Both the position numbers and the translations under genes were made by a program. From positions 990,260 through 1,054,259 of the forward strand of contig CAXXTW010000002.1 of NCBI GenBank assembly GCA_963678255.2: a stretch of DNA of 64,000 nt, read 5' to 3'. The notes under the pieces were generated by a model. The model was not told the origin of the DNA. It saw nothing but the letters and a program-made list of their open reading frames with translations, and ran no database searches. Of this stretch, positions 4,045-62,432 are shown one piece after another. Source of the stretch: Candidatus Cloacimonadales bacterium (GTDB lineage: Bacteria; Cloacimonadota; Cloacimonadia; Cloacimonadales; WRIO01). Every line of letters starts with the position of its first letter. Within the stretch, counting starts at the first letter, position 1.

Positions 4045-4060
4045 TGGCATAGGCAATGCA
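4045..4060 (+). promoter_or_regulatory. Candidate sigma54 (-24/-12) promoter upstream of flgB
   Basis: TGGCATaggcaaTGCA has GG and GC at the canonical spacing of TGGCAC-N5-TTGCA. It sits 24 nt upstream of the flgB ATG, in an intergenic region and in the correct orientation. Confidence 0.55.
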
Positions 4061-44667: not shown

Positions 44668-44683
44668 TGGCATGTACTATGCA
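44668..44683 (+). promoter_or_regulatory. Candidate sigma54 (-24/-12) promoter
   Basis: TGGCATgtactaTGCA has the same GG/GC spacing and the same TGGCAT-N5-ATGCA form as the flgB element. Intergenic, pointing at the 44786-46410 genes. Confidence 0.45.
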
Positions 44684-45225: not shown

Positions 45226-45267
45226 AGTTTCAAAAATGTGTTAATCACTTTGTTATTAAAAGGAGCG

Positions 45268-47823: not shown

Positions 47824-48158
47824 GTTGAAAGCCCCTGCAGCGCTTACAGGTCAATTCTACTCTTCAAATTGTTCGACGCTAGAGGAATTTAAACAATGTC
47901 GCAACCCCTGCAGCGCTTACAGGTCAATTCTACTCTAAAATCAAAACTATCGTTACTCATAATGGACAATTGTCGCAACCCCTGCAGCGCTTACAGGTCA
48001 ATTCTACTTAACGGTTAAAGTAGACCAAGAGATTAATGCCGAATATGTCGCAACCCCTGCAGCGCTTACAGGTCAATTCTACATACTAGAATATGTCTTA
48101 AAAATGAGACTAAAGTCTTTTAGTCGCAACCCCTGCAGCGCTTACAGGTCAATTCTAC
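47824..48158 (-). CRISPR. CRISPR array 1: 5 repeats, with the leader-distal one degenerate, and 4 spacers
   Basis: 36-nt repeat, plus strand GTCGCAACCCCTGCAGCGCTTACAGGTCAATTCTAC, at 47898, 47972, 48047 and 48123, plus a degenerate copy at 47824. Spacers are 37, 38, 39 and 40 nt. Minus-strand orientation is inferred from the repeat 3' end ...GGGGTTGCGAC and the cas gene direction. Confidence 0.95.
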
Positions 48159-48489: not shown

Positions 48490-48753
48490 TTATAATACAA
48501 TTAGCATTTCATGCTGATCATTAACTGCCACAGCTTTTTGCTCGCAGGATGAACATAAGGTGAAAACATGTATCTTCCCATTCTTCTGGTTGATTTTCTC
48601 CAGTTGATTCATAAACCAATTTATATTCTTTGAGTTGATATTAGCTACAAAAACAGATTCCTGAATCCTTAAACCATGTTTTTCCAAAAACTTTGAGAGA
48701 CGATAACGAATCTTATCATTAGGGATGTCATATGCAATCACTCTTTTCATCAT
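48490..48753 (-). CDS. cas2: CRISPR-associated endoribonuclease Cas2
   Basis: 87 aa. The N-terminal VIAYDIPNDKIRYRLSKFLEKHGLRIQESVF pattern is typical of Cas2. Overlaps the cas1 stop. Confidence 0.9.
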   Translation of the reverse strand: MMKRVIAYDIPNDKIRYRLSKFLEKHGLRIQESVFVANINSKNINWFMNQLEKINQKNGKIHVFTLCSSCEQKAVAVNDQHEMLIVL

Positions 48754-51395
48754 TACCTCAACCGATAGGTTTTATATTCCACACCAAGAACAATGCTATT
48801 ATGCAAAGAACTGACAGTTTCATCCAATAATCCATAATGGGTCATAACTTTATCATGATATTTCAATACCTGATTCATTGACCATTCAAAACGATTGAGA
48901 AACTTTTTAAACCCTTCATTATTTAAACGAGTACATTTGCCACCATGTGTTGAAAAATCAACAAAATCTTCAGGCAGAATCTGATGATTATGGATCAGAT
49001 GCAGGATAACTCTTTCAGGAATAAAACGAAGTGGTTCCATAAGATCTGAAGCAAGGGCTTTATGTAAACCTTTCACTATATGATAAACACCCTCATAAGG
49101 ATAGTATCCTTTACTAATTAATACTTCACAAAGCCTGTTATATAGTAATGTATAACCCAGAGAGAGCATTGCATTAACAGGTCCCACAGGAGGATAGTAT
49201 TCTCTTTTCTCAAAAGGGAATGGGGTTGTCAGTTTTCTGAAATGCCGAAAATACTCTGCAGAGGCTGCTCCTTCTTTCCCACGAATAGAATCAATATTAT
49301 CCATATTTGAGATAGAGTTTAAAATTTCCTGTAACAATTCTGATTTTATCTCTCTCTTTTGAAGCATCATTTTCTGATTATGAATCTTGGCTTCAACGAT
49401 TGTTTTGATAAAATTCATAACAAAGTGATCATAATTGTTGCCTCTTCTCTCAACTAATTCTTTGATATTTATCCATTTGATTATATTGTGAAAAGCACCT
49501 TTGGGATTTCCTAATATATCAGAAAAGATAATTCCTTTTTGATACTCCAAAGCTTTTTTGATAACAGATGCACTAACTCTGGGCTTTCCAATGATTACCA
49601 GCCTTTGAATTTCCTTCCAGGGTATCTTTCTTTTTTCTGAATCCATTTCAATGACAAGCGTTTCCCCCTCCGTCCTGGCATAGGAGTTATAATAAGAAAG
49701 ATAAACAGGAATTCCACCCAATCTGTTTTTATCAAAAAGATGAGTCCAGGTAGGATCAGTATTTTCCTGACATTTAATAGATCTGGCTTCACCATTCTGA
49801 ACCAAATGACCTAAAAATTCAAAAGGAATATTCGGATCAACCTTGACAGTTTTATCAATAGACAGCTTTAAATCATATTTAATCAATACATTTTCTACAA
49901 ACTGAAGGATCTGATCATTATTTTCTTTACTGAGAATAAGAATATCGTCAGCAAAACGTACCATTCGAAAAGGTTTTTTTTGTAAATCCTGATCAAATCC
50001 AATCATATAGATATTCGACAATAAAGGAGACAGGGCATTTCCCTGATTTAACCCGATCTGATCCTCTGTGAAAATTTTTCGAAGAATGCCCAATAGGGGA
50101 TCAAACAGAAACAAAGCCTCTAATATCAGAAATATACTTTTTAAAGGGATACTGTCAAAAAAAGATTCGATATCAACTTTTACACCATATCTAAAGCCTT
50201 GATCATACAGTTCTTTCACTCTTTGCACAGCTTTATGGTAGCCCATTCCGCTTCGATAGGCATAAGAGTCTGAGGACATTAATTCATCACAGGAATTTGC
50301 TAATAATTTAGCTAAATTCTTAAAAACAAAGCGATCAGTGAAATTAAAAACACTTATTGTTCTATATTTGCCATTTTTCTTTTTTTTATGAAAAGTTTGA
50401 AATTCAGAGGGGATAAAGGTATTGTTTTTTAACTTTTCAATTAATTTATTGATATAATCCTCTTTATTTAAAAGCACATCATTCAGGTTAATGCCATCAA
50501 AATCAAGGCTTTCCTGATCCATGTCATTAAGATGCTCTTCTAAATAGGAATGGGTGGTCATCTGCAGAAATAGATTTTTAATAGATCTAAACTCATCATA
50601 AAAGATATCATTCTTTAATGATATTCTATACTGACCAAAACCAAAGCTTGTATTTTTTCCAATACCTGCTGTCTGCCCCCATACCAGCAATTGAATCAAC
50701 TCTTCTGAAAACCTGCCTTTTATAATCAAACTACCAATGATTCCACCTAAAGAATTTTTGTATGCCATATCCACCCAGATGAATTGCTTGTTCGACAGGA
50801 TATATTCAGTAGAAGATTGAAGTTTTTGTCCTGATTTAATCTCAATTATTCTGAGAAAATCATTAAAATTAAAGTAATCAGAATCATAGTATTTATGCCC
50901 CTTTTCTTTATCCTGATCAGGTCTTTTCAGCCTTAAAGGGCTGATGAAGATCACACGAATTTCATCTGATGAAGTTAATTTTTGAAGAGAGTTTTGATCA
51001 AGAGGAAAATTGTATTTCGTGGTTGGATTATTCAAATTTTCATTTGGATCAAGGGCCTTAATGAGTTCAACCGTTTTGTTAATAATGAACTGTCCGGATT
51101 TACCATAATTAACCTGTTCACCGGATTGAACAGCCTGAATCCAGGCTTGAATATTATCAGAAATATCTTCAGGGAAAAACATTAAAAGAGATATCTTGTC
51201 ACCTGGAAAGTATTCAATAATGCCCTTATTTACAGGCAGAATTTTAATGTTACTTTCAGAAAGAACATTAAGCTGAATATTATTCAACCAGGGTCTGATG
51301 GAATGACTTATTCCTGCATACCACTGAACTCCGCTATATAATAAAACATGATCTATTTTTTTTATGCACTTGAATTCCAGTTGAAGGCATTTCAT
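48753..51395 (-). CDS. cas1: Cas6-reverse transcriptase-Cas1 fusion protein. Start set at the ATG at 51395, after a GGAGAAGGGGGG RBS; the track's TTG start is at 51419.
   Basis: Cas6 G-rich loop GIGKNTSFGFGQY. RT motifs: RTISVFNFTDRF, YAYRSGMGYHKAV, VDIESFFDSIP, GLNQGNALSPLLSNIYM, VRFADDILILS. Cas1 region: NAMLSLGYTLLYNRL, ALASDLMEPLRF. Confidence 0.88.
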   Translation of the reverse strand: MKCLQLEFKCIKKIDHVLLYSGVQWYAGISHSIRPWLNNIQLNVLSESNIKILPVNKGIIEYFPGDKISLLMFFPEDISDNIQAWIQAVQSGEQVNYGKSGQFIINKTVELIKALDPNENLNNPTTKYNFPLDQNSLQKLTSSDEIRVIFISPLRLKRPDQDKEKGHKYYDSDYFNFNDFLRIIEIKSGQKLQSSTEYILSNKQFIWVDMAYKNSLGGIIGSLIIKGRFSEELIQLLVWGQTAGIGKNTSFGFGQYRISLKNDIFYDEFRSIKNLFLQMTTHSYLEEHLNDMDQESLDFDGINLNDVLLNKEDYINKLIEKLKNNTFIPSEFQTFHKKKKNGKYRTISVFNFTDRFVFKNLAKLLANSCDELMSSDSYAYRSGMGYHKAVQRVKELYDQGFRYGVKVDIESFFDSIPLKSIFLILEALFLFDPLLGILRKIFTEDQIGLNQGNALSPLLSNIYMIGFDQDLQKKPFRMVRFADDILILSKENNDQILQFVENVLIKYDLKLSIDKTVKVDPNIPFEFLGHLVQNGEARSIKCQENTDPTWTHLFDKNRLGGIPVYLSYYNSYARTEGETLVIEMDSEKRKIPWKEIQRLVIIGKPRVSASVIKKALEYQKGIIFSDILGNPKGAFHNIIKWINIKELVERRGNNYDHFVMNFIKTIVEAKIHNQKMMLQKREIKSELLQEILNSISNMDNIDSIRGKEGAASAEYFRHFRKLTTPFPFEKREYYPPVGPVNAMLSLGYTLLYNRLCEVLISKGYYPYEGVYHIVKGLHKALASDLMEPLRFIPERVILHLIHNHQILPEDFVDFSTHGGKCTRLNNEGFKKFLNRFEWSMNQVLKYHDKVMTHYGLLDETVSSLHNSIVLGVEYKTYRLR

Positions 51396-51636
51396 AGTCC
51401 CCCCTTCTCCTAACTTCAATTAGTTAAACAACAGAATTCAGTAAATCGCAGGATCTAAAAACATCTTTTGGTTTATAAATGTACAATGTACTTCCAGTTG
51501 CGTTTCTTCTGCTCATAAATGTTTCCGGAATATCATGTTACATATCGCAATCCATCATTTAACAATATAAAACTCAGCATCAACCTGATGTTCTCCCACT
51601 CACCAAATTACTTTTTTAAATTATAACTTCAACGAA

Positions 51637-51900
51637 GTTGAAGCCCCTGCAGCGCTTACAGGTCAATTCTACGAAAACGTAGTTTGTGAAAAATTAGAAA
51701 TAAATAAAAAAGTCGCAACCCCTGCAGCGCTTACAGGTCAATTCTACTAAAGAAATATCAATTCAGGCTGAAACAAGGAAAGGCATACTATAGTCGCAAC
51801 CCCTGCAGCGCTTACAGGTCAATTCTACGAATCAAAGGAGGGAACCATCTGAGATACGCAGAAAGTCGCAACCCCTGCAGCGCTTACAGGTCAATTCTAC
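51637..51900 (-). CRISPR. CRISPR array 2: 4 repeats, with the leader-distal one degenerate, and 3 spacers
   Basis: Same 36-nt repeat at 51712, 51793 and 51865, plus a degenerate copy at 51637 (gttgaagcccc...). Spacers are 39, 45 and 36 nt. Confidence 0.95.
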
Positions 51901-52020: not shown

Positions 52021-52415
52021 TTTTCACAGTCTATAATGATCCCAAAATTACCTTTCCTGATAAACCAGTCAAGATAATTTTCTATCTAATGCATGAATGA
52101 TATTCCTGAATTTTGCTAATTACAGATATTATCGCATGTAAACCACATTCTTAGACTTTTAAGATCATCCATCCTGATATTATTTTCTGAATTCACAAAC
52201 CAGTCATTCATCATACTAATAAATCTAGCAAATTCATATAATTTAAAACATTCTTCCTTTCAGTTAATGGAAGTCAATCTTAGTTGATTGACATTCAACA
52301 TCTTCACATATATTTGCCATTTGATTCAAAATATACCCAAAATCAAACTTAATATTGATTTTGTAGTCATAAATTTTCCATATCATCATTTCAAAGGATT
52401 GTCAAATTAATTTTC

Positions 52416-52445
52416 AAAAAAAAACCCGGGTTTTCACCACGGGAC
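52416..52445 (-). terminator. Weak terminator candidate after the Gly-zipper gene
   Basis: Minus strand has CCCG...CGGG (a short stem) followed by a run of 9 T. Confidence 0.3.
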
Positions 52446-52485
52446 ATAAGATAATATGTTACTCTCAATTATTGTCTAACAAAAA

Positions 52486-53319
52486 TTAATTATCGAAAAT
52501 AGATTTAATAAATGAACAGATCCCTATTCCCACGCCAATAGTAACGGCAATTGGAGTAAGAACCACTGCACCTGTTGCGATTACCCCTGTTGCTCCTATA
52601 GTTGTAAGACCAGTGGCAATTGCCCCACCAGCAAATGTTCCTGCCGCACTTCCAGCTGCTGCTGATATTGCTCCTATTGATGCGCTTTTTGCTACACTAC
52701 CTGCAGCTTCTCCGATGGAGTGTTCTCCGTCAATAACACTTTTTATTTCACAAATAGCCGTTATACCTGCCGAAATTGCAGCACCACCGAAAGCACTTCC
52801 TTTTGCAGCAGTCTTACAGGCATTACCTATTCCCGACAATCCATTAACCCCTGCTTTAGCTGCTAATGCTGAAGTTGTATTTGTTGAGATACCAGATGAA
52901 GTGACTGTTTTTTTAATTCCTTCTTTAGTTAGTTTTTCTCCAATATTTTGGACGGTTTCTTTTGTACCAAAAATCTTTGCGGAATTGTACTGTCCTGATT
53001 TTATTTGCGAAACAACTTTCCCCACTGAAGCAGGAGTATCTTTAGCCTGAATTCGGCTGATGATTTTTCCGCCTTGTTTAACTACGACATCAACAGTTTT
53101 TGCATTAGTACTTTGAGTTAATTGAGCATTAATTCCCTTAATGATATTCAAAGGATTGGCATTAATTCCGTCTTTGATGAGAATTTCATGAATGATTCCT
53201 TTTAATTGTGGATTATTTCCTGCACGATTGAAAGCTTCAGCAATAACTTTTCCTTCATAACCACTTCTGACTGTATTGTTAACGGCACTGGTAAATTGAT
53301 CTTTAGTTCTGTTTTCCAT
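52486..53319 (-). CDS. Membrane protein with a soluble N-terminal domain (about 150 aa) and a Gly/Ala-rich glycine-zipper C-terminal region. Putative CRISPR-associated membrane effector.
   Basis: ATG at 53319, preceded by a GGGAGGG RBS and a sigma54 promoter. The C-terminus GAISAAAGSAAGTFAGGAIATGLTTIGATGVIATGAVVLTPIAVTIGVGIGI contains repeated small-xxx-small motifs. Confidence 0.6.
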   Translation of the reverse strand: MENRTKDQFTSAVNNTVRSGYEGKVIAEAFNRAGNNPQLKGIIHEILIKDGINANPLNIIKGINAQLTQSTNAKTVDVVVKQGGKIISRIQAKDTPASVGKVVSQIKSGQYNSAKIFGTKETVQNIGEKLTKEGIKKTVTSSGISTNTTSALAAKAGVNGLSGIGNACKTAAKGSAFGGAAISAGITAICEIKSVIDGEHSIGEAAGSVAKSASIGAISAAAGSAAGTFAGGAIATGLTTIGATGVIATGAVVLTPIAVTIGVGIGICSFIKSIFDN

Positions 53320-53352
53320 TTTCCCTCCCAAATATTTAATACCATTGTAATT

Positions 53353-53368
53353 TGCAGTACCTGTGCCA
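53353..53368 (-). promoter_or_regulatory. Sigma54 (-24/-12) promoter of the Gly-zipper gene
   Basis: Minus strand reads TGGCACaggtacTGCA, with GG/GC spacing identical to the consensus TGGCAC-N5-TTGCA. It sits about 35 nt upstream of the ATG at 53319, directly downstream of a sigma54-type activator gene. Confidence 0.6.
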
Positions 53369-53439
53369 TTTTATAAAGAAGATTCTAAATATTTTATTAT
53401 TATATAGTTATGTAATAATAGAATCAGATAAGCATAAAC

Positions 53440-53478
53440 TATAGATTGATAAAATACACTTAAAGTTTATAATCTATA
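53440..53478. promoter_or_regulatory. Candidate upstream activator site (imperfect inverted repeat)
   Basis: TATAGATTgATAAAa-N9-AGTTTATAATCTATA, centred about 95 nt upstream of the -24 element. The AT-rich context makes a chance occurrence plausible. Confidence 0.25.
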
Positions 53479-53507
53479 ACTCAAATTTTTACAAATAGTA
53501 ATATTTA

Positions 53508-55085
53508 TTACTTATCTTTGTTAGATGTTTTATTGTGGTAGTCTTTGAGCCATTTCGATAAAGCTTGTGGAGTTATTTTTAAGACTTCAGCGACAAGATT
53601 TTGTTTTCCATTATATTGATTGAGCAAACAGTTAATAGCTTTAAATCTTATTTGGGCAATTTCCTTATCTAAATCAATAAAATCATTTTTCTCCATAACA
53701 ATGTTTAAATCATCCTGTATTGGGAAATGTAGAGTATCTGGTAAATCAGTAAAGAAATCCTGATGAAATACATTTTGCTTTAAGACTGTTTTATTAATCA
53801 TAATGTCATCTGAATTAAAACAGCATCTTTTTATTACAAATTGTAATTCTCTAATATTTCCTTTCCAGAGGTATTTTTTTATAAACTCTTGACCTTCATC
53901 ATTCAACACTTTTTCTACATAAGATTTATTCATTTTTTTAAATTCATTGTTACATTTTGTAAGAATCTCTTTGGCTATTTCTATAACATCTGTGCGCGTT
54001 CTCAAAGGTGGCAGATCAATCACAACATCAGCCAGCCGATAATAAAGGTCTGGTCTGAGTTTTTGAGGACTATGAGTGGCAGATATAATTCTAACATCAA
54101 CCCCTATATCCTCTACAGAACCAACTTTTTTTATTTTTTTTTCCTGGATGGCTCTCAGTAGTTTGACTTGTGAAGTTTCAGGCAAATCACCGATCTCATC
54201 AATGAATAATGTCCCTCCGTTCGCAGACTCAATTAATCCAATTTTTTCTTTATCTGCACCGGTAAAAGCACCTTTGACATGACCAAATAATTCTGATTCT
54301 ATAAGAGTCTCAGAAATGGCGGAAATGTTAAATTCTACAAAGTTATTTTTTCGTTTTGTTGTTTTCTCATATATTTTTCTGGCATAGTATCCTTTTCCAG
54401 TTCCTGTTTCACCTAAAATTAAGACATTTACATTATTGTAACAAGAAAGTTTATCTACCATTAAATTAATAGCGTTTATCTTAGGATCCGAACATTCTTT
54501 ATTAATAAAATCAGTCATTTTTGAATCTATATCCAAATAAGATTCTTCATGCTTTTTTAAATTCTCTTTCATCCTCTTCAATTTGATATCCAACTCAAGC
54601 GGGATAACATATTTCTCACATTTTGTTACATCATTTTTTTTATCATACCAGGATTGAAGTAACGAGGCTCGATTTTTTGCTATGGAGATCAAAGTCCAAC
54701 AAACCTTCATAATATCTGTTCCTGATGTTGTGTTAAAACTGAGATCATCATCAATTTGAAGAAAACCCTCGTTATACAGATTAGTAATTGCATTTTCAGT
54801 CATTCTGAACACAGCATTTATATCTGCAGCATTGAATTTATCTGTTTGATAGCTTTCGATCTTTTTGTAAGGAAATGCCTTTCTCAATGCATCAAGATAT
54901 TCTTTAAAAGACTCATAATGCCAATTATCCTTCTTATTTTGCTGATCATCTAACACAATTACTTTTTGAAAATCAAAAGTATTTGAGAATAACAAAGCTT
55001 CCAGAGGTGCCATTCTATTTTTCATTTCAATTTTGGTTTCAAAGTCATGAAACCCCAACCAGGAGATTAAACAATTTTTTTGCAC
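53508..55085 (-). CDS. RtcR-like transcriptional activator: N-terminal CARF-type sensor domain, sigma54-interaction AAA+ domain, C-terminal helix-turn-helix (HTH)
   Basis: GTG start after an AAGAGG RBS. N-terminal CLISWLGFHDF and FNTTSGTDIMKVCWTLI parallel the E. coli RtcR ITTGTHVAQICWFLL segment. LILGETGTGKG (Walker A), ESELFGHVKGAFTGA, GGTLFIDEIGDL (Walker B). C-terminal QNLVAEVLKITPQALSKWLK (HTH). Confidence 0.8.
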   Translation of the reverse strand: MQKNCLISWLGFHDFETKIEMKNRMAPLEALLFSNTFDFQKVIVLDDQQNKKDNWHYESFKEYLDALRKAFPYKKIESYQTDKFNAADINAVFRMTENAITNLYNEGFLQIDDDLSFNTTSGTDIMKVCWTLISIAKNRASLLQSWYDKKNDVTKCEKYVIPLELDIKLKRMKENLKKHEESYLDIDSKMTDFINKECSDPKINAINLMVDKLSCYNNVNVLILGETGTGKGYYARKIYEKTTKRKNNFVEFNISAISETLIESELFGHVKGAFTGADKEKIGLIESANGGTLFIDEIGDLPETSQVKLLRAIQEKKIKKVGSVEDIGVDVRIISATHSPQKLRPDLYYRLADVVIDLPPLRTRTDVIEIAKEILTKCNNEFKKMNKSYVEKVLNDEGQEFIKKYLWKGNIRELQFVIKRCCFNSDDIMINKTVLKQNVFHQDFFTDLPDTLHFPIQDDLNIVMEKNDFIDLDKEIAQIRFKAINCLLNQYNGKQNLVAEVLKITPQALSKWLKDYHNKTSNKDK

Positions 55086-55094: not shown

Positions 55095-56735
55095 TTATAA
55101 AACTATCTGTATTATTAAATGTATCAAGTCCAAACCGATTTCCCTTTCGGGAGTTAAATGATTAAAATCTTCACCATAAACATTTTTTGCGATCGTATGA
55201 AAGATTGTATCTTCAATTAACAGGGATTTTTCGAAGTTAAGGATATCTTCCCATTTGTATTGATCGCTGTTTATTTTTCTCATGATATCATTATATAGTC
55301 GGGTTATTTTTAAAAAATGAAGAATATTTTCTCTGATTTTAAAATTCCCTAATTGAGACATCCCCCGATGTATGAAAAAGTTTCTTTCATCTCTAAATTT
55401 TTGATAATTTCCTGTATAAATTAAACGAAATTTCTGATAAATATTTTTATTTTGTTTTAAAAATAAGGGTTTAAACTTTAGATTAAATTCATCAATAAGT
55501 TTTTGAAATTCTTGATTATTCGGACTATCTATCAGTTTATCAATCAGATTTATATTTATATCCTGTTCGAAGCCATTAATCAGTATTTTTTTCTCTTTAT
55601 CTGTAAAGAGTGAAGGATCAATATGTTTTTTTATGATAAATCTGAAATACTGATCTTCCAAAGAAACCAAAAAGACCGAAGCGGTTATAAAATCATCTTT
55701 GTAGATTGAGGAAAAAAACAAGGAAAAAAGATTGTAAAACCAGTTTTCCTTATTTTCTTTAAAATCTTTGATTTTTTTAAATAAAGCTTCGATGTCATTA
55801 AGAACAGGTTGATTGAGCTCAGTATTGACATAATTCTTTAATAGATTGTATTTTCTATCCGCATCATAAAAATCGTTGTTTTTGACAGACTGTATTAATT
55901 CCTTAAGAATTGTATAATAACTGTTGGCGTTTTTTGTAATCTTTAAGTAAGAAGAACTTTCAGTAATATAAACCGGAATAAGGTTTGCATTAATGAAGCC
56001 TGTATAGAGAATATTTTCAACCGCTTTTTGCAACAGTGGCAGTCCTCCTGCATAAAGTGAAAGGAAAATATTGTTTTCTGAGTCATCCATCTCTGAGAAA
56101 TCGAACAAACTGATGATTTTATTATGAAACTGCCTGGTTAAATAATCAATATTGTTCAAATCAAAGGATTTCAGATAATTCATCATTTGAGATGACGTTT
56201 CTATCACAACATTATTAAAATCTTCCTCGAAAATCTCACCAATTGACAGGATATCCACATCATCAATTTTTATCTTGTGATAGTTAGTAATCTCATCCAT
56301 TTTCATGATTATAAGTTCTGCAGTTTGTTTTGATTTATCATTCTGAATATATTTATTAACAAGATCCTTTGCAAAATCTGAGCAATCCTTCCATTTCTGA
56401 TGAAGTGATTCCTCTTTTGCTTTATTTATTAAAGTGAGATTATTTCTTCTATCTGTGACAATTAAAATTAGCTTATGAATATGGTTTTTACTGTGAATAT
56501 CTTTCAAGGCACTTAGATTTTTACTCAACATGGGAAAATCTAAACCTTTTAAATCTAACTCTTTTGTTTCTAACTTTTCTTTTTTTGGATTGATCTCTAT
56601 ATTGGTTTGCAAAAAAGGTAAAGAAACAAGATCTTTGATGTTTGAATTATTTATCTCTATACGAGTCAAATTCCCCTCATGATCAACAACTCCCATGCAG
56701 TCCCTTTGTCCTATGGTCATAAATAAAAGATTCAT
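55095..56735 (-). CDS. Csx1/Csm6-like ancillary protein with a C-terminal HEPN RNase motif. The N-terminal sensor domain is possibly CARF.
   Basis: HEPN R-x4-H motif in the Csx1-like context ERNFFIHRG. N-terminal MNLLFMTIGQRD resembles the first CARF strand. Translationally coupled (TAATG) to the effector operon. Confidence 0.55.
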   Translation of the reverse strand: MNLLFMTIGQRDCMGVVDHEGNLTRIEINNSNIKDLVSLPFLQTNIEINPKKEKLETKELDLKGLDFPMLSKNLSALKDIHSKNHIHKLILIVTDRRNNLTLINKAKEESLHQKWKDCSDFAKDLVNKYIQNDKSKQTAELIIMKMDEITNYHKIKIDDVDILSIGEIFEEDFNNVVIETSSQMMNYLKSFDLNNIDYLTRQFHNKIISLFDFSEMDDSENNIFLSLYAGGLPLLQKAVENILYTGFINANLIPVYITESSSYLKITKNANSYYTILKELIQSVKNNDFYDADRKYNLLKNYVNTELNQPVLNDIEALFKKIKDFKENKENWFYNLFSLFFSSIYKDDFITASVFLVSLEDQYFRFIIKKHIDPSLFTDKEKKILINGFEQDININLIDKLIDSPNNQEFQKLIDEFNLKFKPLFLKQNKNIYQKFRLIYTGNYQKFRDERNFFIHRGMSQLGNFKIRENILHFLKITRLYNDIMRKINSDQYKWEDILNFEKSLLIEDTIFHTIAKNVYGEDFNHLTPEREIGLDLIHLIIQIVL

Positions 56736-58717
56736 TAAAATCTCCTTTGATTTTGAGAGGGTTTGTTTTTAGGTTTAGGTTTATTAGAAACTAAGCTTTT
56801 TTCAGAAGACCCTGATCTTAGTTTAAAATCATCTGCTCTGATCTCAGAATGCCATTTCGGAATTTCACCATCTCTCTGAGGATAAGAAAATTCTTTTGTT
56901 TTTAATTTAAAAGAATCCTTCAGTTCTGATTTGTTTTCAAAAGAATGAGCATTAATAAAATCCAAGGGATTGAATGATTTTTGGTTTAATTTTGAATCCA
57001 GCACTATCATTTGATCGATAAATATCTTTACTGCCCCTAAACCGTAATTTTTACCATATCCTATTTGATGACATAATATATTTTCGTTTTCATACTGAGT
57101 GAATAAATCATTTTTTTTCTTATCATCAAGCTGAAGAGAAAAGCATAAAAGAGATAATTCATCTTGTGTTAAGTTGTTAAAATGCAACTTGAATTTAAAT
57201 TCTGGAAAAGAGTCTAAATTGTTCTTAATATTATGTGGTCTCACAACTTTCTTGAGACAGATCATCATTTTCTGATCTTCATCGGTTAATGATATGGGAA
57301 GATAATTTTTTGAGGAGCGTTTGTAAACTTTACGCCCGGATAAGACGGCTTTGTCGTGATCCTCTCTTGCCCGATCTCCATAAGTGATTAATGGTTTCTC
57401 TTCATTATCTGATTCTTCCTGTTTAAGATAAAACTCATAAGCACTTGGCATGGGTTGACCTGGTCTTTTGAGATTAAACCCATTTCTATCAATACTTCCT
57501 CCGGATATATATTGTGCATAATTGATGTGAATCTTTCCTGCTTTAGAATTTTGCACCTTATCTTTGTGGTTTTCATGTTTCAGCATATCTTCTTTAGTGA
57601 AACCGAACATTTCATAAAACCTGGAAATTCTGATTTCGTCATTTATTGTTTTGAAGAATTCATCTTTCAGATTATTCTTAACAATATCCTCCAAACTGTT
57701 TTGGTAAAGCCAAAGGTAATAGAAGTTTTTTCCAAAGGAAATAATCTGATCTTGTTCAGCATCATATTGAAAAATTATCGGTTCTCCGACTTTAAAGATT
57801 CGCATTTTCTCAATATTCTCTTTTATTTCTTTTTTTTCATCTTCATTAAAGTGAAAAGGATGTTTATTAACAAATCCGGATCCTAACTCATCAATAGTTT
57901 TATGATAATGATCTAAAATGTCCTGGTTCACTTTTAATTTTAAATGATCACCAAATTTTATAGCATCCGTAAATTTTTTTTTATTGAATCCAATACAATT
58001 ATGATGCTTTAACTTTGAGTTATTCTCTTTATCATGCTCTAAAAATTTATCAACCGTAAGTCCGTTTCCGACCCATCCATCAGGATAACTAAAGAAATAA
58101 TATGCTGTTTTACTATTACCAATCTTTATATTAGTCTCGTGTAATTTTTCGATATCTTTTTCATTAAATGAATTTAGTAATGGGTTTAAAGAAATATTTT
58201 TTAATGAAGAATCTTCGAACTTCAGAAGACCATCAATCGGCAGAATTTCCATACTGTCTTTTAAAACTTTAGTTATTATCCCGGCTCCGGTTATTAATCT
58301 TTTATTATCTTTGTTATCATGAAGTTTTGTGTATATATTGATGTTTGGTCTCATCATAAAAGATTGTTGATTAATTTTCCTAATGGGGACATTCAAATAT
58401 TGTTTCACGAAGGAAGCAACGGCTCCCTTTAAAGTATGAGGAGAGATTAGTATTTTATTGTTCATTTCCAAGGGATTGATGACAGTATATTCATTCTCTT
58501 GATCTTCATTTTCTTTCTTGGTGAGATTTCCAACTATTAAATGATTTAATGCATACAGGGAACAGTTGATAGACCCCGAATACAATTCCTCATCCCCTTT
58601 TAATATTTTATTGAATTCGGCAATGTTAACATAATCAGAATCTTCATGAGCTTTGACAGGTATAAAAGAATAGACTAAATTATCTTTAGCGGTTTTGATT
58701 TTATTATAAAGAGTCAT
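56735..58717 (-). CDS. Type III RAMP protein, Cas7 with a large insertion (Cas7-insertion-like)
   Basis: YSFIPV...YSGSINCSLYALNHLIVGN, PHTLKGAVASF, and G-rich loop GYGKNYGLGAV. Start set at the ATG at 58717, after a GGAGA RBS; the track start is 58747. Confidence 0.6.
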   Translation of the reverse strand: MTLYNKIKTAKDNLVYSFIPVKAHEDSDYVNIAEFNKILKGDEELYSGSINCSLYALNHLIVGNLTKKENEDQENEYTVINPLEMNNKILISPHTLKGAVASFVKQYLNVPIRKINQQSFMMRPNINIYTKLHDNKDNKRLITGAGIITKVLKDSMEILPIDGLLKFEDSSLKNISLNPLLNSFNEKDIEKLHETNIKIGNSKTAYYFFSYPDGWVGNGLTVDKFLEHDKENNSKLKHHNCIGFNKKKFTDAIKFGDHLKLKVNQDILDHYHKTIDELGSGFVNKHPFHFNEDEKKEIKENIEKMRIFKVGEPIIFQYDAEQDQIISFGKNFYYLWLYQNSLEDIVKNNLKDEFFKTINDEIRISRFYEMFGFTKEDMLKHENHKDKVQNSKAGKIHINYAQYISGGSIDRNGFNLKRPGQPMPSAYEFYLKQEESDNEEKPLITYGDRAREDHDKAVLSGRKVYKRSSKNYLPISLTDEDQKMMICLKKVVRPHNIKNNLDSFPEFKFKLHFNNLTQDELSLLCFSLQLDDKKKNDLFTQYENENILCHQIGYGKNYGLGAVKIFIDQMIVLDSKLNQKSFNPLDFINAHSFENKSELKDSFKLKTKEFSYPQRDGEIPKWHSEIRADDFKLRSGSSEKSLVSNKPKPKNKPSQNQRRF

Positions 58718-59132
58718 GATATAATCTCCAATTGTTTTTCTCGTCAATGAGAATGGTTAATGATTCATTTGGGATGTTTTTAAGTATTCCCAATTCATCA
58801 GCATATGCGTAACGCTTTTTATTATTCTTAATCGATCTAACAGTTACTTTTTTTACATTCTCATCAGATAATGATAATGTTTTAATAACTTCAAAATAGA
58901 CATCCCTATCTTGCAGGTAATAAGATCTCTGTTCATTTTCATTAAACAAAACAAGAATACTTAAATCTTTGATGCTTTGAAGTGTAATTTTGACATCCTT
59001 AGTAATAAAGAACATCCCGGCATGATCATTTCCCAGATTGTTTCTTAATTGATCGGTCCAGCCTCTTTCTCCAATAGCCCAATCACTGTTTTTAATTTTT
59101 TCTATCATATCAGTAAAAGATATTTTATTCAT
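58704..59132 (-). CDS. Small type III-D accessory subunit, Csx19-like by position
   Basis: 142 aa, located between two RAMP genes as in fused-subunit III-D loci. Has a GGAG RBS. No motif I can verify. Confidence 0.35.
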   Translation of the reverse strand: MNKISFTDMIEKIKNSDWAIGERGWTDQLRNNLGNDHAGMFFITKDVKITLQSIKDLSILVLFNENEQRSYYLQDRDVYFEVIKTLSLSDENVKKVTVRSIKNNKKRYAYADELGILKNIPNESLTILIDEKNNWRLYHDSL

Positions 59133-60414
59133 GATTCAGCTCCAATTCCCAAATAGGATAAGTTGAATGAGCTCCCAGAGAAATAACCCGGGCTTTCATT
59201 CCATTATTTATTAATTCAAACATTTGTTTCATTTCATCATTCCAGTCTTTTTTGTAAATTTTAATAAATCCTGAAAATGAGGTATAAAACAATGCTTCCT
59301 CATCAAACTTTGATGATCCTAAAACTGCTCTGGTAAATTCATCCTGAGCATGGTGATTGATGACAGCCAAATGATCCTTATTAAAGTTGTCTGGATAAAA
59401 ATCAGATATATATACCTTTCCTGCTGTTGCTTCTTTTTCTTCAGTTTGACCAAAAAAAATCTCGTTCCATTGAATATGACCATACTTTTCTAAAAATGCC
59501 GTAATAACCCCTTTAACCGATGAACCAGGAATTAGCAAACGAGTTCCATTATTCATAAAAACAGCATCTGGTTCAATATCATCTTTATTTCCAAGACTAA
59601 ACATAGCCTCTCCACCTCTTATCAGAAGAGTGTTGGTACCATACCCATCTGCTTCATCTTTTATAATTATCCTGAGAGGAATCTCAACAAATAGATTATT
59701 ATGTACTTTATTGTTGTCATCGTTAATATTCACATCTTTTTTCGGATAACAATTAAAACTTTTAAGAATAGCCCAACCACAACCGGAGCTTGAAAAAGCT
59801 CCAATAAACAGACCATCCTTTTCCCACGAGTTGAAGACTTTTTCAGCCCATGTTTTTAACAGATCAATATCCCATTTTTTAATATCATTTTCTGAAGCTG
59901 TAGGAACAATATCAGATGAGTCAAAATCAACAGGCAGATACTTGTCGGTATTGATAGTCATTTCCAAAGTCATCATAACTGGATTTTCATCTAATTCATA
60001 GGGTTCAATTTCCCAATGCGAAAACTTTGCTTTATCTTCAGCAGTTTTTCTGGATCTGTTAATTTTCACCCTGTCTCTGATAGCCGGTTTAACTTTTGCC
60101 ATATTAAAGAAATAAGTTGAAAACTCATAAGGACTTGAGAATGATTTCAAATCTGTTTCCCTTTCCTGATTACCTGACTCCTGATGATCAGCTGGAACGA
60201 TTTTTTTGTATTGATCAGTTGATTTTTCATTCTCTGTTAAGAGCTGATCAAGTCTATCAAAAAAAAGACCGGCAATACTGGTTCCGGGAATGATAAACTC
60301 ACCTTTTCCATTTCTGACCATATTTGCGGCACCTAAAGCATCTTCAATCAATCCGGAGCCAATATGAAGTGCTGTTTTCAATTGGATATCCAACTTATAT
60401 TTTATCTTACTCAT
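59125..60414 (-). CDS. Double-Cas7 RAMP fusion (Cas7-2x-like; Csm3/Cmr4 family)
   Basis: Two RAMP cores: LKTALHIGSG...FIIPGTSIAGLF and LLIPGSSVKGVITAFL. Confidence 0.65.
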   Translation of the reverse strand: MSKIKYKLDIQLKTALHIGSGLIEDALGAANMVRNGKGEFIIPGTSIAGLFFDRLDQLLTENEKSTDQYKKIVPADHQESGNQERETDLKSFSSPYEFSTYFFNMAKVKPAIRDRVKINRSRKTAEDKAKFSHWEIEPYELDENPVMMTLEMTINTDKYLPVDFDSSDIVPTASENDIKKWDIDLLKTWAEKVFNSWEKDGLFIGAFSSSGCGWAILKSFNCYPKKDVNINDDNNKVHNNLFVEIPLRIIIKDEADGYGTNTLLIRGGEAMFSLGNKDDIEPDAVFMNNGTRLLIPGSSVKGVITAFLEKYGHIQWNEIFFGQTEEKEATAGKVYISDFYPDNFNKDHLAVINHHAQDEFTRAVLGSSKFDEEALFYTSFSGFIKIYKKDWNDEMKQMFELINNGMKARVISLGAHSTYPIWELELNHE

Positions 60415-62419
60415 TATCTTCTCCTTTCAGAACTTCTCTGAGAATGAACCCTAAGATTTCATAATTGGATATGTTTGTTAACATTTTATTTAAAAGATCA
60501 AAAAGAAGATTATGATCTTTAACTTTTACTTTTTTCTCTTTTAGTAAATCATAAATAATGTTCAAGGGTGTACCAGCTTCAACGAATGTTAAAGTGTAGC
60601 GCAAGATTCTTTTCCATCGTTTCAAAGTCTTCATTGCTTTTAATTGATCAGAATAACTTTTCTTACAATCATGTTTTTGGGACATTTTAAGACAGAAATC
60701 ATCCTGTCTGGGAATATAGATCTCAGGGTTATCTGAGTTTTGGTTCTGGTTATTTATGCTATGTACAGGGTGGTTGATTCTTACCTTACCAAATCCTTCA
60801 TTTTTTCGTAAACCGATGCCTTTATCTAAAAGTTGTTTAAGATTGGCACGGTCTTCAGGAGATAAATTTATCAATTTATATTCAAAAACACTCCCGGCTT
60901 TGATTGCTTTCACCCCAAATCGACGGGTTCCACTTAATCCATGAAATGAATGAATAATCCTTGTTTCTGAATTGTGTCTCTTTAAAACGATTTTTTGATC
61001 TTCTGTAAGATGAATCTCTTTTGCAAAGTATCCCGGTTTAATGATTGAAGCAAAACTGCCATTTTCTTCGAGTAAAATCGCATCAGATTGTAAAGTCAAT
61101 ATGAAAATATCTTTATCTATGACAGAATCTTGGCTTATCTCAGTAAAGTAATAATCAAATATTTCAACAGGTTTTGACCCTCTGCCCAAATGCAGCCAGA
61201 CATTTTTATCTAACCATGGTTTCATTAGTCTTAAAAACGTATGTAAATCTTCATTATTTTGAAAAGTAACTGTCCCCTGAAAATAATTATTCTTCAATAC
61301 CTTCTCTTCTGTAAAAAGTGACTGATCACTTACAGCCTGTGTAGAGCTATCTATTTTATTCCTCATTTGAATTGTAACCGGAACAGAATAATAACTCATA
61401 TCTCCGTTTTTATTGATCAGATATCCACCAGAAAAACTTTTATTGGATTCGTTATTGTTTTTATCATTGATAAACTCATCTTTATCAATTTTATTCCCTA
61501 ATGATTTCAACGCCCAATGTGGTATGGGTTGATCTTTAAATCCATCCTTTTTCTTCTTTCTAGCAGTGAAAGGAATAGGGATAATATCAGGATTTTGATT
61601 CTGATCTTTAAAATAATTGATACAGTCAAAAGGAATAGGCAGAAAATTACTTACCATGATTCTCGAATCATTTAACATTGATAAATCCTGATCAGTTTTT
61701 GCCAAATGTACTCTCAGCATACCCAGCACGCTTGTACCGCTGAAATAATCTAAAGTTCTATAATGATTATTGTTAAGTAATGCGCCATCTGCAATGGTTA
61801 CGTTATCCTTTAATTGTAATATCAAACTGATGGAATTAGCAGAACTTTCAGACAAGGTAGCTTCATCAAAAGAATATTCATCAATACGGTGAACTATGTT
61901 TGATATAGAAATTTTCCCAATACCTCTGGTTCTGCTTCCACCAACTCTTTGAAGATTTAGTAAACTTTCTATTAACAAATCAGAAATTTTGTTTAAATCT
62001 ACAGAATCATTTGCCAGATATCTGATTTCACCATTAAATGAGCACCCTTTTTTAAGGCATTCAATGCTTCGTAAAGACTTATCTGTTGATTTACGGGTAT
62101 TTCTATCAATTCTGGTAAAGGTATGAATAATAAAGGGATATTCATCATCCTTTTTGTTATAACTGATTAAAATATCAAGAGATTGTTGATTTTTGTAGAA
62201 AAATAAGTTTGAATATTCAGATTTAAATTCAGGTTTTTGATGGATGATTTCATGAGCTGATTGCCTTAATAATCCTTTAAAGGTATCAAAGTTGAATATG
62301 GGGTCACCGTTATGATCTTTTGTAAAGCCATCATCATAAAGCCCCGGACAATTAAGCCCATTGCCAAGATGAATATCTTCCAAAGTTTCTATACTAAAGT
62401 TGATGTTTAATATTTTCAT
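60407..62419 (-). CDS. Multi-domain RAMP fusion, Cas7-Cas5-Cas11-like
   Basis: First RAMP: IHLGNG...FKGLLRQSAHE and GGSRTRGIGKISI. Second RAMP: FSGTSVLGMLRVHL and LRKNEGFGKVRI. Helical C-terminal tail of about 120 aa. Start set at the ATG at 62419, after an AAGGAGA RBS. Confidence 0.55.
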   Translation of the reverse strand: MKILNINFSIETLEDIHLGNGLNCPGLYDDGFTKDHNGDPIFNFDTFKGLLRQSAHEIIHQKPEFKSEYSNLFFYKNQQSLDILISYNKKDDEYPFIIHTFTRIDRNTRKSTDKSLRSIECLKKGCSFNGEIRYLANDSVDLNKISDLLIESLLNLQRVGGSRTRGIGKISISNIVHRIDEYSFDEATLSESSANSISLILQLKDNVTIADGALLNNNHYRTLDYFSGTSVLGMLRVHLAKTDQDLSMLNDSRIMVSNFLPIPFDCINYFKDQNQNPDIIPIPFTARKKKKDGFKDQPIPHWALKSLGNKIDKDEFINDKNNNESNKSFSGGYLINKNGDMSYYSVPVTIQMRNKIDSSTQAVSDQSLFTEEKVLKNNYFQGTVTFQNNEDLHTFLRLMKPWLDKNVWLHLGRGSKPVEIFDYYFTEISQDSVIDKDIFILTLQSDAILLEENGSFASIIKPGYFAKEIHLTEDQKIVLKRHNSETRIIHSFHGLSGTRRFGVKAIKAGSVFEYKLINLSPEDRANLKQLLDKGIGLRKNEGFGKVRINHPVHSINNQNQNSDNPEIYIPRQDDFCLKMSQKHDCKKSYSDQLKAMKTLKRWKRILRYTLTFVEAGTPLNIIYDLLKEKKVKVKDHNLLFDLLNKMLTNISNYEILGFILREVLKGEDNE

Positions 62420-62432
62420 AATTATTCTCCTT

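Follow-up and report, generated by a model that had tools for sequence, protein, structure and literature searches.

A probable sigma-54 promoter between a CARF-AAA+ activator gene and a nuclease-like effector gene at a type III-D CRISPR-Cas locus of a Cloacimonadales bacterium

A -24/-12 element lying between two minus-strand genes of a Candidatus Cloacimonadales bacterium is very probably a real sigma-54 promoter. We put at roughly 0.7 the probability that it works as an RpoN promoter for the 277-amino-acid gene downstream, here called the effector gene, and is activated by the CARF-AAA+-HTH protein encoded upstream. The activator gene stands at the end of a type III-D cas operon. Positions are those of the window, the whole 64-kb stretch of DNA that was analyzed, and the features discussed are collected in Table 1.

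Table 1. Positions and descriptions of the features discussed in the 64-kb window
Feature	Position	Strand	Description
Sigma-54-type -24/-12 promoter element	53353..53368	minus	TGGCACAGGTACTGCA = TGGCAC-AGGTA-CTGCA
Ribosome-binding site	53323..53329	minus	GGGAGGG, 3 nt before the ATG at 53319
Effector gene (promoter target)	52486..53319	minus	277 aa; nuclease-like domain and Gly/Ala/Ser-rich tail
Activator gene (presumed promoter activator)	53508..55085	minus	525 aa; CARF-AAA+-HTH enhancer-binding protein (Sigma54_activat, PADLOC)
Candidate upstream activator site	53464..53481	minus	AGTTATAGATTATAAACT; palindrome AGTTW-N8-RAACT
Inverted repeat	53390..53456		20-nt arms (53390-53409, 53437-53456), 17/20 complementary
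Csx1/Csm6-like ancillary gene	55095..56735	minus	546 aa; R-x4-H (RNFFIH) motif in the sequence
Type III-D effector genes	56735..63977	minus	Tightly packed with the csx1-like and activator genes
Cas7/Csm3-like gene	56735-58747	minus	
142-aa protein gene	58704-59132	minus	
Cas7 gene	59125-60414	minus	
Cas5/Csx10-Cas7 fusion gene	60407-62449	minus	PADLOC Cas5_IIId, 3e-35
Cas10d gene	62433-63977	minus	PADLOC Cas10/Cas10d, 4e-56
Cas6-reverse transcriptase-Cas1 fusion gene	48753..51419	minus	Adaptation module (Pfam)
CRISPR array 1	47825..48158	minus	5 copies of GTCGCAACCCCTGCAGCGCTTACAGGTCAATTCTAC
CRISPR array 2	51637..51900	minus	4 repeats of GTCGCAACCCCTGCAGCGCTTACAGGTCAATTCTAC; downstream of the effector gene, same strand
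Second -24/-12 element	4045..4060	plus	TGGCATAGGCAATGCA; matrix score 14.6
Third -24/-12-like element	44668..44683	plus	TGGCATGTACTATGCA; matrix score 16.3

An earlier note, made from the sequence of this DNA, had proposed a minus-strand TGGCAC-AGGTA-CTGCA with GG and GC placed as in the consensus. Reading from 53368 to 53353 confirmed this, with GG at 53367/53366, GC at 53355/53354, and 10 nt between them; the sole departure from TGGCAC-N5-TTGCW is C for T at -15. The ATG that the note had placed about 35 nt downstream, behind a GGGAGGG ribosome-binding site, was found at 53319-53317, with a measured gap of 33 nt and the binding site at 53329-53323. Bearing on the choice of this ATG, homologs of the effector share the same first residue in an alignment. 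Transcription would start near 53342, and the leader of about 23 nt from this predicted start contains GGGAGGG.

A search with TGGCACN5YTGCW returned one zero-mismatch match in the window, namely this element. It also ranked top, with a score of 17.8, when both strands (128 kb) were scanned with a sigma-54 weight matrix that we wrote from the published consensus and that was not trained on this organism. In first-order Markov sequence of matching composition (20 Mb), scores like 17.8 arose at 4e-7 per position; the number expected by chance is 0.05 for the full window and 1e-4 for the minus strand of this intergenic region. Six matches scoring at least 14.6 were observed in the window versus 0.9 expected, and three of the six fall in the non-coding 11% of the window, each in the same orientation as the gene that follows (binomial P = 0.023). 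The earlier claim that the match is not due to chance is supported by the expectation of 0.05, the top matrix score, and the recurrence of the element across activator-linked loci described below. The matrix scan suggested as a check, carried out within the window, gave no other site reaching 17.8 and only three intragenic sites scoring at least 14.6. Near-consensus sites inside genes of the window lie at 56037, 17101, and 2634.

Two additional elements cited earlier as evidence that the organism uses promoters of this form are both present and differ in weight. The one at 4045 precedes flgB, whose ATG at 4084 lies 23 nt further on and whose product is FlgB by TIGR01396 (2e-29). The one at 44668 is ambiguous: it doubles as a sigma-70-like TTGGCA-17-AATAAT and is therefore weaker support than had been assumed. 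Genes in the window also include those for T9SS-tail proteins, GldE, and a flagellar operon, which would fit a flagellated member of the Fibrobacterota-Chlorobiota-Bacteroidota (FCB) group close to Cloacimonadota.

A sigma-70 or Bacteroidetes-type promoter for the effector gene was considered and rejected, none being present on the correct strand. TAnnTTTG is the Bacteroidetes-type -7 promoter element. The minus strand from 53320 to 53507 contains neither a sigma-70-like match nor TAnnTTTG, with the qualification that the host's own housekeeping promoter type may differ, and TAnnTTTG is not enriched anywhere in the window. No rpoN is found among the genes of the window; the host presumably carries it.

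Comparison across loci is stronger evidence for the promoter than the points raised in the earlier note, as judged from the sequences compared. The activator gene abuts the effector gene divergently in L014, L040, and L045 and in tandem in L042. GG-N10-GC precedes the start codon in each of them: the elements are TGGCTCGGAGATGGCT at 32 nt, TGGCTCTAGTTTGGCT at 31 nt, TGGCACAGGGATGGCT at 31 nt, and TGGAATGTGATTTGCG at 40 nt. When the three divergent regions were aligned, the -24/-12 block and the ribosome-binding site were among the conserved islands. Effector genes without a neighboring activator (L001/L012, L002/L003, L044, L004/L005, and L015-L039) have no -24/-12 element. In the lineage of L010, L011, L013, and L041, an HNH gene separates the activator and effector genes, and only TTGGAACGCCTTGCTT is found, a GG-N8-GC arrangement that is not a valid sigma-54 spacing.

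In other loci of the activator family, -24/-12 elements lie 30 to 38 nt before other nearby operons. L006, which adjoins a Cas10 homolog, has the elements TGGCACAGTCATTGCA and TGGCACAAGTAATGCT and an EcsC-like operon as candidate cargo; L046, in which the cas gene order is as in the window, has the element TGGCACACGGATAGCT and a radical-SAM operon as candidate cargo. A promoter was also expected in L046 between the activator gene and the RT-Cas1 gene, and none was found in that interval. Intragenic near-consensus sites occur in L046 at 2816 and 2659.

The intergenic region upstream of the promoter contains a candidate site for the activator, a palindrome centered about 106 nt upstream of the GG. 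AGTTW-N8-RAACT occurs at three places in the window versus 1.4 expected. The homologous regions between the two genes in L014 and L045 carry it too, at about 95 nt before the GG, and L040 carries a form with N7 spacing. The upstream regions of the window and L006 have in common the 12-mer AGATTATAAACT, for which about 0.15 occurrences would be expected by chance (a rough estimate), and we retain it only as part of the candidate palindrome lead. An inverted repeat, matched by 5 of 300 dinucleotide shuffles, sits between the palindrome and the promoter. Folding of the intergenic RNA gave a stability no better than that of shuffles (z = 0.25), so the inverted repeat is not taken to be a terminator, and a terminator or structured RNA in this region was rejected on the same fold energies. 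No terminator was found between the activator and effector genes, and read-through from the cas operon could give some sigma-54-independent expression of the effector.

The element had been described earlier as lying just downstream of a gene for a sigma-54-dependent activator, and the gene at 53508-55085 on the minus strand bears this out: its product matches Pfam Sigma54_activat at 3e-53 (180 bits versus a cutoff of 20). The family alignment displays GAFTGA (...VKGAFTGADKE...), Walker A GETGTGKG, and Walker B LFIDEIGD motifs, and Foldseek superimposes the AAA+ domain on NtrC1 (1ny6) with a TM score of 0.87, a root mean square deviation of 2.5 Å, and 40% identity. The PADLOC model RtcR_PspF2--CARF_AAA_HTH matches the full-length protein at 1.9e-101, with an alignment reaching residue 517, and helices are predicted at residues 472 to 524, the putative HTH region. 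Pfam HTH_8 was not detected in the window activator; a weak match is recorded for the relative P0143.

Profile and model evidence assigns the N terminus of the activator to the RtcR-like branch of CARF domains, with ligand binding predicted. An N-terminal profile of the family matched Csm6' (8pcw, 8e-5) and Csm6 (6tug, 2e-4) in the PDB. Pfam RtcR matched 10 of 13 family members and Cas_Csm6_CARF 9 of 13; the window activator alone falls below the RtcR cutoff (17 bits versus 23). AlphaFold2 gave a six-stranded Rossmann model with a beta5-beta6 hairpin (strands at residues 4-9, 41-47, 75-81, 114-118, 140-148, and 153-159, with helices between) at a moderate pLDDT of 60 to 85, which we compared with the CARF fold as defined in PMC4012209. 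Residues G11, D14, G122, and T123 (in W-x-G-x-x-D and S-G-T) are invariant in the family alignment. The domain is rare: an exhaustive search found 10 relatives among 1.84 billion representatives. A word-index search with residues 1 to 200 returned nothing and missed even the protein itself.

The effector had been labeled a Gly-zipper protein. This label fits the tail and overlooks the N-terminal domain: residues 1 to 160 form a putative restriction-endonuclease-like (PD-(D/E)xK-like) domain, and residues 161 to 277 form a Gly/Ala/Ser-rich predicted membrane tail. The 58 homologs are about 275 residues long, and E45, D77, Q91, and K93 are invariant in the family, Q91-x-K93 having Q where D or E is usual. 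AlphaFold2 modeled residues 1 to 160 with pLDDT 75 to 97, mostly above 90, and the best Foldseek match was EcoT38I (probability, 0.99; E = 5e-3), followed among the top matches by MspJI, YaeQ, Can2, and VC1899, all with TM scores of only about 0.2. From this weak fold match and the variant QxK motif we call the domain nuclease-like. No sequence match was found in Pfam, and a family search of the PDB was likewise empty; PADLOC PDC-M72B matches at 2e-5. The tail is 50% G/A/S, with 33 [GAS]xxx[GAS] and five GxxxG motifs, and is hydrophobic over residues 229 to 277 (mean hydropathy above 1.5 across most of 236 to 276), a composition of the glycine-zipper membrane type. No CARF or SAVED domain is recognizable in the effector. 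The idea that the effector is a phage protein was rejected, as it has no PHROG match and the family is seen in one viral contig only. One homolog comes after holin and endolysin genes.

Neither the type III-D CRISPR-Cas locus nor the CARF domain of the activator figured in the earlier note. By gene content the locus is classed as type III-D, with a Cas10 that has a cyclase palm, a Csx10-type Cas5, Cas7 genes, and two arrays. Beyond the matches given in Table 1, the cas block matches PADLOC Cas7_IIId and Csm3 as well as Pfam RAMPs and the Cas10 palm2 domain, and Cas10 retains its GGDD motif (LMLGGDDLL). The stop codon of the csx1-like gene lies 9 nt before the start of the activator gene. The csx1-like product has no Pfam or PADLOC match, and our reading of it as a HEPN protein is taken from the R-x4-H motif by itself; two paralogs occupy the same position in L002. 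The adaptation fusion matches Pfam Cas_Cas1 (1e-52), RVT_1 (5e-28), and CRISPR_Cas6 (2e-8). Array 2 is probably transcribed on the minus strand, because the degenerate repeat marks its low-coordinate end, the flank at its high end contains a 165-nt duplication, and a near-identical repeat lies on the cas strand in L046.

Taken together, these features suggest a mechanism. The activator would be made together with the type III-D Cas proteins, and sigma-54 RNA polymerase would wait at the -24/-12 element in a closed complex, leaving the effector gene silent. A sigma-54 closed complex cannot open unaided and needs an ATP-driven activator. On receipt of a signal by the CARF domain, the AAA+ domains would assemble, probably bound at the AGTTW-N8-RAACT candidate site about 100 nt upstream, and, with their GAFTGA loops in contact with sigma-54, they would spend ATP on promoter opening. 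The resulting protein, in which a glycine-zipper membrane tail carries a restriction-endonuclease-like domain, would then harm the infected cell or the invader; both the activity and the toxicity of the effector are presumed, and the binding site is predicted from sequence. Our first choice of signal would be cyclic oligoadenylate from the GGDD-bearing Cas10, and our second would be 2',3'-cyclic phosphate RNA ends of the kind proposed for RtcR. For CARF domains of the RtcR type, the reported triggers are tRNA fragments or RtcAB and not cyclic oligoadenylate (PMC7790460, PMC9650030). We advance only tentatively, at somewhat less than even odds, the full chain in which Cas10-made cyclic oligoadenylate acts on the CARF activator to open a silent -24/-12 promoter so that a toxic effector is synthesized only after target RNA is detected. 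Its cargo would be exchangeable: the gly-zipper/nuclease gene here, the EcsC-like operon in L006, and the radical-SAM operon in L046.

The promoter and activator could be genuine and yet form an independent stress or defense cassette that travels with CRISPR loci, its CARF domain sensing damaged RNA (e.g., 2',3'-cyclic phosphate) or another infection cue and not cyclic oligoadenylate. Several activator-effector pairs are in fact carried by a Tn7/Mu-like element, where TPR-ATPase and SNF2-helicase genes adjoin them and cas genes are absent from the neighborhood, so the signal could come from a source other than Cas10; the genomes bearing these transposons, however, may hold a type III system in another place. 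Pfam RtcR matches members of the family, and the best PADLOC model for the window activator is RtcR-type, but the CARF profile also picks up Csm6 domains with cyclic hexa-adenylate as their ligand. CoCoNuTs (coiled-coil nuclease tandems) are type IV restriction systems. In PMC4012209 and PMC11090510, RtcR-like CARF activators are predicted upstream of restriction-modification and CoCoNuT defense operons, which they would control via RNA fragments. Cyclic-phosphate ends would also arise from HEPN RNases and from the cleavage of RNA by type III systems. Several facts speak against a cassette independent of CRISPR: type III-D genes surround or adjoin the activator gene in the window, L040, L045, L046, and L006; in the window and in L046 it ends the cas operon, immediately behind the csx1-like gene; and the GGDD of Cas10 is intact. 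On balance we consider this explanation rather unlikely.

The element could instead be a chance match or a non-productive sigma-54 site, with effector expression supplied by transcripts running on from the cas operon or by an unrecognized housekeeping promoter. The lack of a terminator between the two genes would permit this, and near-consensus sites also lie inside genes of the window and of L046. Such an account is highly improbable given a chance expectation of only 1e-4 for the region and strand, the recurrence of the element, at the same distance, in four independent loci with a linked activator and in none of the unlinked ones, and the lack of any sigma-70-like or Bacteroidetes-type element on the minus strand from 53320 to 53507. 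A different possibility is that the main output of the promoter is read-through transcription of CRISPR array 2 and its leader, some 450 nt downstream, which would raise the crRNA supply when the system is triggered. The effector gene, presumed leader, and array 2 share a strand, and no terminator was found after the effector gene within the scanned interval 52300-52486. A sigma-70-like TAGACA-16-TATTAT just past the effector stop codon, however, could serve the array alone, the promoter-effector unit occurs with no array behind it in L014, L042, and the transposon loci, and the tight spacing of the ribosome-binding site points to a translated product; we regard array read-through as improbable. 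The reading we prefer remains a working RpoN promoter whose target is the effector gene.

Under the preferred reading, sensor and effector are separate proteins joined by a sigma-54 promoter, and a promoter class that is silent until ATP-driven opening is well matched to a toxic product. Should the ligand of the CARF domain be a Cas10 product, the locus would provide a direct path from RNA-guided detection to new bacterial gene expression, with swappable cargo operons; if the signal is damaged RNA, the module would still tie RtcR-type sensing to abortive-infection-like effectors. In either case, the catalogued but uncharacterized CARF family RtcR_PspF2 gains a testable target made up of promoter, candidate binding site, and cargo gene. 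These three parts could also act as an inducible switch with a reporter readout.

The closest known arrangement is RtcR/rtcBA of E. coli and Salmonella, in which, as here, a CARF-AAA+-HTH-type activator with an N-terminal sensor domain and a GAFTGA AAA+ core is encoded beside the -24/-12 promoter of its target, which here is a presumed one. The cargo of RtcR is the RNA repair pair RtcA/RtcB, whereas the cargo here is a nuclease-like predicted membrane protein, and unlike RtcR the activator here is encoded at the end of a type III-D cas operon. The RtcR-like activators of restriction-modification and CoCoNuT operons have the same architecture, a CARF sensor acting on defense genes via sigma-54; as presented in PMC4012209 and PMC11090510, these are gene-order predictions that appear to name no promoter, whereas here the element, a candidate activator site, and the cargo are supported across loci and the partner system is type III-D CRISPR-Cas. 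Csa3 (CARF-HTH) regulators, which respond to cyclic tetra-adenylate (PMC9704534), likewise tie a CARF sensor to CRISPR signaling with transcription as the output, but they are simple DNA-binding regulators of sigma-70 or archaeal-type promoters, mostly in type I-A systems, with no AAA+ motor and no sigma-54 dependence.

PspF resembles the present activator in being an enhancer-binding protein with a -24/-12 promoter next to its own gene and a membrane-stress-related target; it differs in lacking a sensor domain, being controlled by PspA, and having no CRISPR link. To our knowledge, the known ancillary effectors of type III CRISPR systems are already synthesized when a second messenger binds and activates them. 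Cam1, Cap1, Csx23, and CorA, type III membrane effectors that bind the signal directly (e.g., 10.1101/2025.11.13.688252, PMC12669027), are, like the protein described here, membrane-associated ancillary effectors in a type III locus that are expected to harm the host cell. They carry their own sensor domain and are activated post-translationally, whereas here a transcription factor distinct from the effector carries the sensor and no CARF or SAVED domain is recognizable in the effector itself, and control would therefore be at the level of synthesis. Overall, we regard the locus as a variant of the known RtcR-type circuit.

The element preceding the effector gene, which encodes a 277-aa protein with a nuclease-like N-terminal domain and a glycine-zipper membrane tail, is predicted to be an ordinary sigma-54 promoter. 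It reads TGGCAC-AGGTA-CTGCA on the minus strand, compared here with the consensus TGGCAC-N5-TTGCW. Its GG and GC are separated by exactly 10 nt, the consensus spacing, which bears out the motif form and dinucleotide placement claimed in the earlier note. That note had set the element about 35 nt before an ATG with a GGGAGGG ribosome binding site (RBS); the RBS is present, and the exact distance from the end of the element is 33 nt. A TTG start from a mechanical open reading frame list is disfavored, as homologue alignment and the RBS point to the ATG. Searches of the minus strand between the activator and effector genes found neither a sigma-70-like match nor the Bacteroidetes-type TAnnTTTG.

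Coordinates of the features discussed. L numbers denote other genome or metagenome loci with effector and/or activator homologues and have local coordinates; all other positions are in the window.
Feature	Position (strand)	Sequence or remark
Sigma-54 element	53368..53353 (-)	non-coding; score 17.8
GG; GC of element	53367/53366; 53355/53354 (-)
RBS GGGAGGG	53329-53323 (-)
Effector ATG	53319 (-)
Activator gene	53508-55085 (-)	525 aa
Disfavored TTG start	53331 (-)
Palindrome AGTTW-N8-RAACT	53464-53481
20-nt inverted repeat	53390-53456
Site before flgB	4045	non-coding; score at least 14.6
Third non-coding site	44668	score at least 14.6
Inverted repeat, T-rich stretch	44700-44790	AGGATAATCCTATAG...GATTATCCTATAGG; next ATG 44787
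Site in csx1-like gene	56037-56052 (+)	TGGCAGTCCTCCTGCA; score 16.4
Other sites within genes	17101; 2634	score at least 14.6
Tightly packed genes	63977 down to 55085 (-)
165-nt duplicates	48122-48286; 51864-52028
TAGACA-16-TATTAT	52451-52478 (-)
Tandem repeat, 292-nt unit	46588-47526
T9SS proteins, GldE and flagellar operon (listed together)	39278-41212; 45238-46410; 14374-15654; 4084-10406
L014 effector		TGGCTCGGAGATGGCT; 32 nt to start codon
L040 effector		TGGCTCTAGTTTGGCT; 31 nt to start codon
L045 effector		TGGCACAGGGATGGCT; 31 nt to start codon
L042 effector		TGGAATGTGATTTGCG; 40 nt to start codon
L006 activator relative and facing operons (listed together)	2928-5828 (-)
L006 EcsC-like gene		TGGCACAGTCATTGCA; 34 nt before gene
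L006 five-gene operon		TGGCACAAGTAATGCT; 38 nt before operon
L046 radical-SAM operon	13187-17348 (-)	TGGCACACGGATAGCT; 30 nt before operon
L046 sites in RAMP genes	2816-2831 (+); 2659-2674 (-)
HNH lineage, example L010	5236-5650
HNH lineage element		TTGGAACGCCTTGCTT
TGGCAGG-N4-T(A/T)TCC	L001 7935-7950; L004 7936-7951	50-51 nt before start codon
L004 effector setting	6506-8837

The possibility that the match is due to chance was weighed within the window, using an approximate weight matrix that we wrote from the published consensus. The element ranked first on both strands, with a score that arises at 4e-7 per position in 20 Mb of first-order Markov sequence of the window's composition (31% G+C). 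This corresponds to an expectation of 0.05 for the window and of 1e-4 for the effector intergenic region on the minus strand. It is also the sole zero-mismatch match to TGGCACN5YTGCW in the window, and on this window-wide scan the claim that it is not a chance match holds. Six sites score at least 14.6 (0.9 expected), and three of these fall in the non-coding 11% of the window, each oriented toward the next gene. Two had been put forward earlier as further intergenic elements: one does precede a gene that we confirmed as flgB, while the other doubles as a sigma-70 pattern (TTGGCA-17-AATAAT) and therefore lends weaker support. Between the latter and the next ATG lies an inverted repeat followed by a T-rich stretch, which was not called in a terminator scan. 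Among the sites within genes, the second best in the window is near consensus and antisense within the csx1-like gene, and locus L046 has two similarly strong sites inside RAMP genes. These three intragenic sites could be chance matches, functionless sigma-54 binding sites, or antisense promoters.

The comparison covered loci with the effector gene, 30 from genomes and several from metagenomes. In four of them the effector gene directly adjoins a full-length homologue of the activator. The two genes are divergent in L014, L040, and L045, whereas L042 has the tandem arrangement of the window; L040 and L045 are likewise type III-D loci. GG-N10-GC stands just before the effector start codon in all four, and when the intergenic regions of the three divergent loci are aligned, the -24/-12 block and the RBS are among the islands of conservation. 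No comparable element was found before effector genes without an adjoining activator. The exception is a Cloacimonadota lineage (L010, L011, L013, and L041) in which a 71-aa HNH gene lies between activator and effector; only an element with a GG-GC spacing of 8 nt, not 10, is present. There a Tn7/Mu-like element carries the pair, whose neighbors are a 1432-aa TPR-ATPase, an AAA protein, and an SNF2-NOV_C helicase. Before the activator-less effector genes of L001 and L004 we observed a sequence that resembles a -24 element and has CC in place of the -12 GC.

The activator's closest relatives have -24/-12 elements before other cargo. The closest of all (41% identity), beside a Cas10 homologue in L006, faces two operons with a strong element at the head of each, one beginning with an EcsC-family protein and the other encoding five small proteins without family assignment. 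L046 shares the window's cas gene order and, on the cas strand, a near-identical CRISPR repeat; the glycine-zipper gene is absent. Its only intergenic element lies past the array, before a four-gene operon whose products include a dihydroorotate-dehydrogenase-like Fe-S protein along with two radical-SAM proteins, the second of which has a 3e-58 match to "radical SAM mobile pair protein B", below the curated threshold of that model. For the activator family, this operon could be an alternative cargo.

The gene directly upstream of the element does encode a sigma-54-dependent activator, as had been proposed. Its AAA+ core contains the sigma-54 interaction domain (Pfam, 3e-53), the GAFTGA loop, and Walker A and B motifs, and the modeled core resembles Aquifex NtrC1 (TM 0.87, 40% identity). 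Residues 1-165 form a CARF sensor domain. A 13-member family profile matches the CARF domains of Csm6' (8pcw, 8e-5) and Csm6 (6tug, 2e-4), 10 of the 13 members match Pfam RtcR, and 9 match Cas_Csm6_CARF. The invariant residues coincide with the two classic CARF motifs, past strands 1 and 4, and the modeled domain, six-stranded with a hairpin between beta5 and beta6, agrees with the published description of the CARF fold (PMC4012209). Relatives of this N-terminal domain are rare: 10 matches came out of an exhaustive search of 1.84 billion representatives, and apart from the activator itself only two had an E value of <1e-10. Where the activator might bind is suggested by a palindrome centered ~106 nt upstream of the GG, which the window contains just three times and which recurs at the equivalent position in L014 and L045 and, in an N7 form, in L040. 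A second inverted repeat was equalled in 5 of 300 shuffles. Both are leads, candidate binding sites only; folding the intergenic region as RNA gave no structure.

The activator gene ends a run of genes with overlaps or few-base gaps. The type III-D genes encode Cas10d, a Cas5(Csx10)-Cas7 fusion, Cas7 proteins, a 142-aa protein, and a Csm3/Cas7-like protein; the Cas10 retains its GGDD motif, and no HD domain is recognizable in it. A 546-aa Csx1-like protein follows, with an R-x4-H motif by our reading and no family match, and the activator gene starts 9 nt past its stop codon. A 188-nt gap containing the element then separates activator from effector, beyond which lie a CRISPR array (array 2), the gene for a Cas6-RT-Cas1 fusion, and another array (array 1). 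Each array has at its high-coordinate end a copy of a duplicated 165-nt sequence (93% identity); these are probably two leader copies flanking the fusion gene. This flank and the degenerate repeats indicate that array transcription runs on the minus strand, as it does for the genes. A sigma-70-like sequence (10/12) directly past the effector stop codon, 5' of the array 2 leader, may be that array's own promoter. Between array 1 and a T9SS-tail protein gene is a tandem repeat (3.2 copies, 97% identity), and the window also encodes T9SS sorting-domain proteins and GldE alongside a flgB-to-fliI-type flagellar operon, read from gene order with flgB alone confirmed. On a 1.84-Mb contig of 31% G+C, this gene content is suggestive of a flagellated FCB-group bacterium with a small genome.

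The effector has 58 homologues of ~275 aa, some in type III loci (L001/L012, L002/L003, L040, L044, and L045). It had no match in Pfam or among PDB sequences, and PADLOC gave a weak match to the candidate defense protein PDC-M72B. Residues 1-160, modeled at high confidence, contain invariant E45, D77, and Q91-x-K93; the best structural matches, all with low TM-scores, are the restriction endonucleases EcoT38I (probability 0.99, E=5e-3) and MspJI, along with YaeQ and the nuclease portions of Can2 and VC1899. We take the domain to be a probable PD-(D/E)xK-like fold, short of a proven nuclease. Residues 161-277 are half Gly/Ala/Ser, with 33 small-xxx-small motifs, and terminate in ~45 strongly hydrophobic residues, and the earlier "Gly-zipper" label is therefore fair. 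In L004 one homologue sits behind a holin and an endolysin: immediately before it are genes for a holin, an M15 peptidase, and a 144-aa protein, recombinase and integrase genes adjoin, and the arrangement resembles a prophage lysis cassette.

The sigma-54 holoenzyme forms a closed complex whose opening needs an ATP-driven activator of the NtrC/PspF/RtcR class. A promoter of this kind before a potentially toxic effector gene would most likely provide tight control, and a sensor-activator encoded last in the cas operon would be present whenever the surveillance complex is. Because a scan found no terminator between the activator and effector genes, transcripts running on from the cas operon may contribute some basal expression of the effector. 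Two triggers are candidates. Operon position, the Cas10 GGDD, and likeness to Csm6 CARF domains favor cyclic oligoadenylate; kinship to RtcR (PMC7790460, PMC9650030) favors RNA with cyclic-phosphate ends, as does the occurrence of this pair on a Tn7/Mu-like element that lacks cas genes.

The proposed circuit follows the RtcR type, which is already known, as is its ordinary class of promoter. The PADLOC model RtcR_PspF2--CARF_AAA_HTH spans the entire activator (1.9e-101), and the family is therefore already catalogued. RtcR-like activators are predicted to govern restriction and CoCoNuT defense operons (PMC4012209, PMC11090510), Csa3 is the characterized CARF transcription factor of CRISPR signaling (PMC9704534), transcriptional regulators appear in the 2025 CRISPR classification among signal-dependent effectors (PMC12669027), and Myxococcus is reported to have a sigma-54 promoter in front of cas-like genes (PMC9765219). 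In our literature search no paper placed a CARF enhancer-binding protein within a type III locus and described its promoter and cargo along with it.
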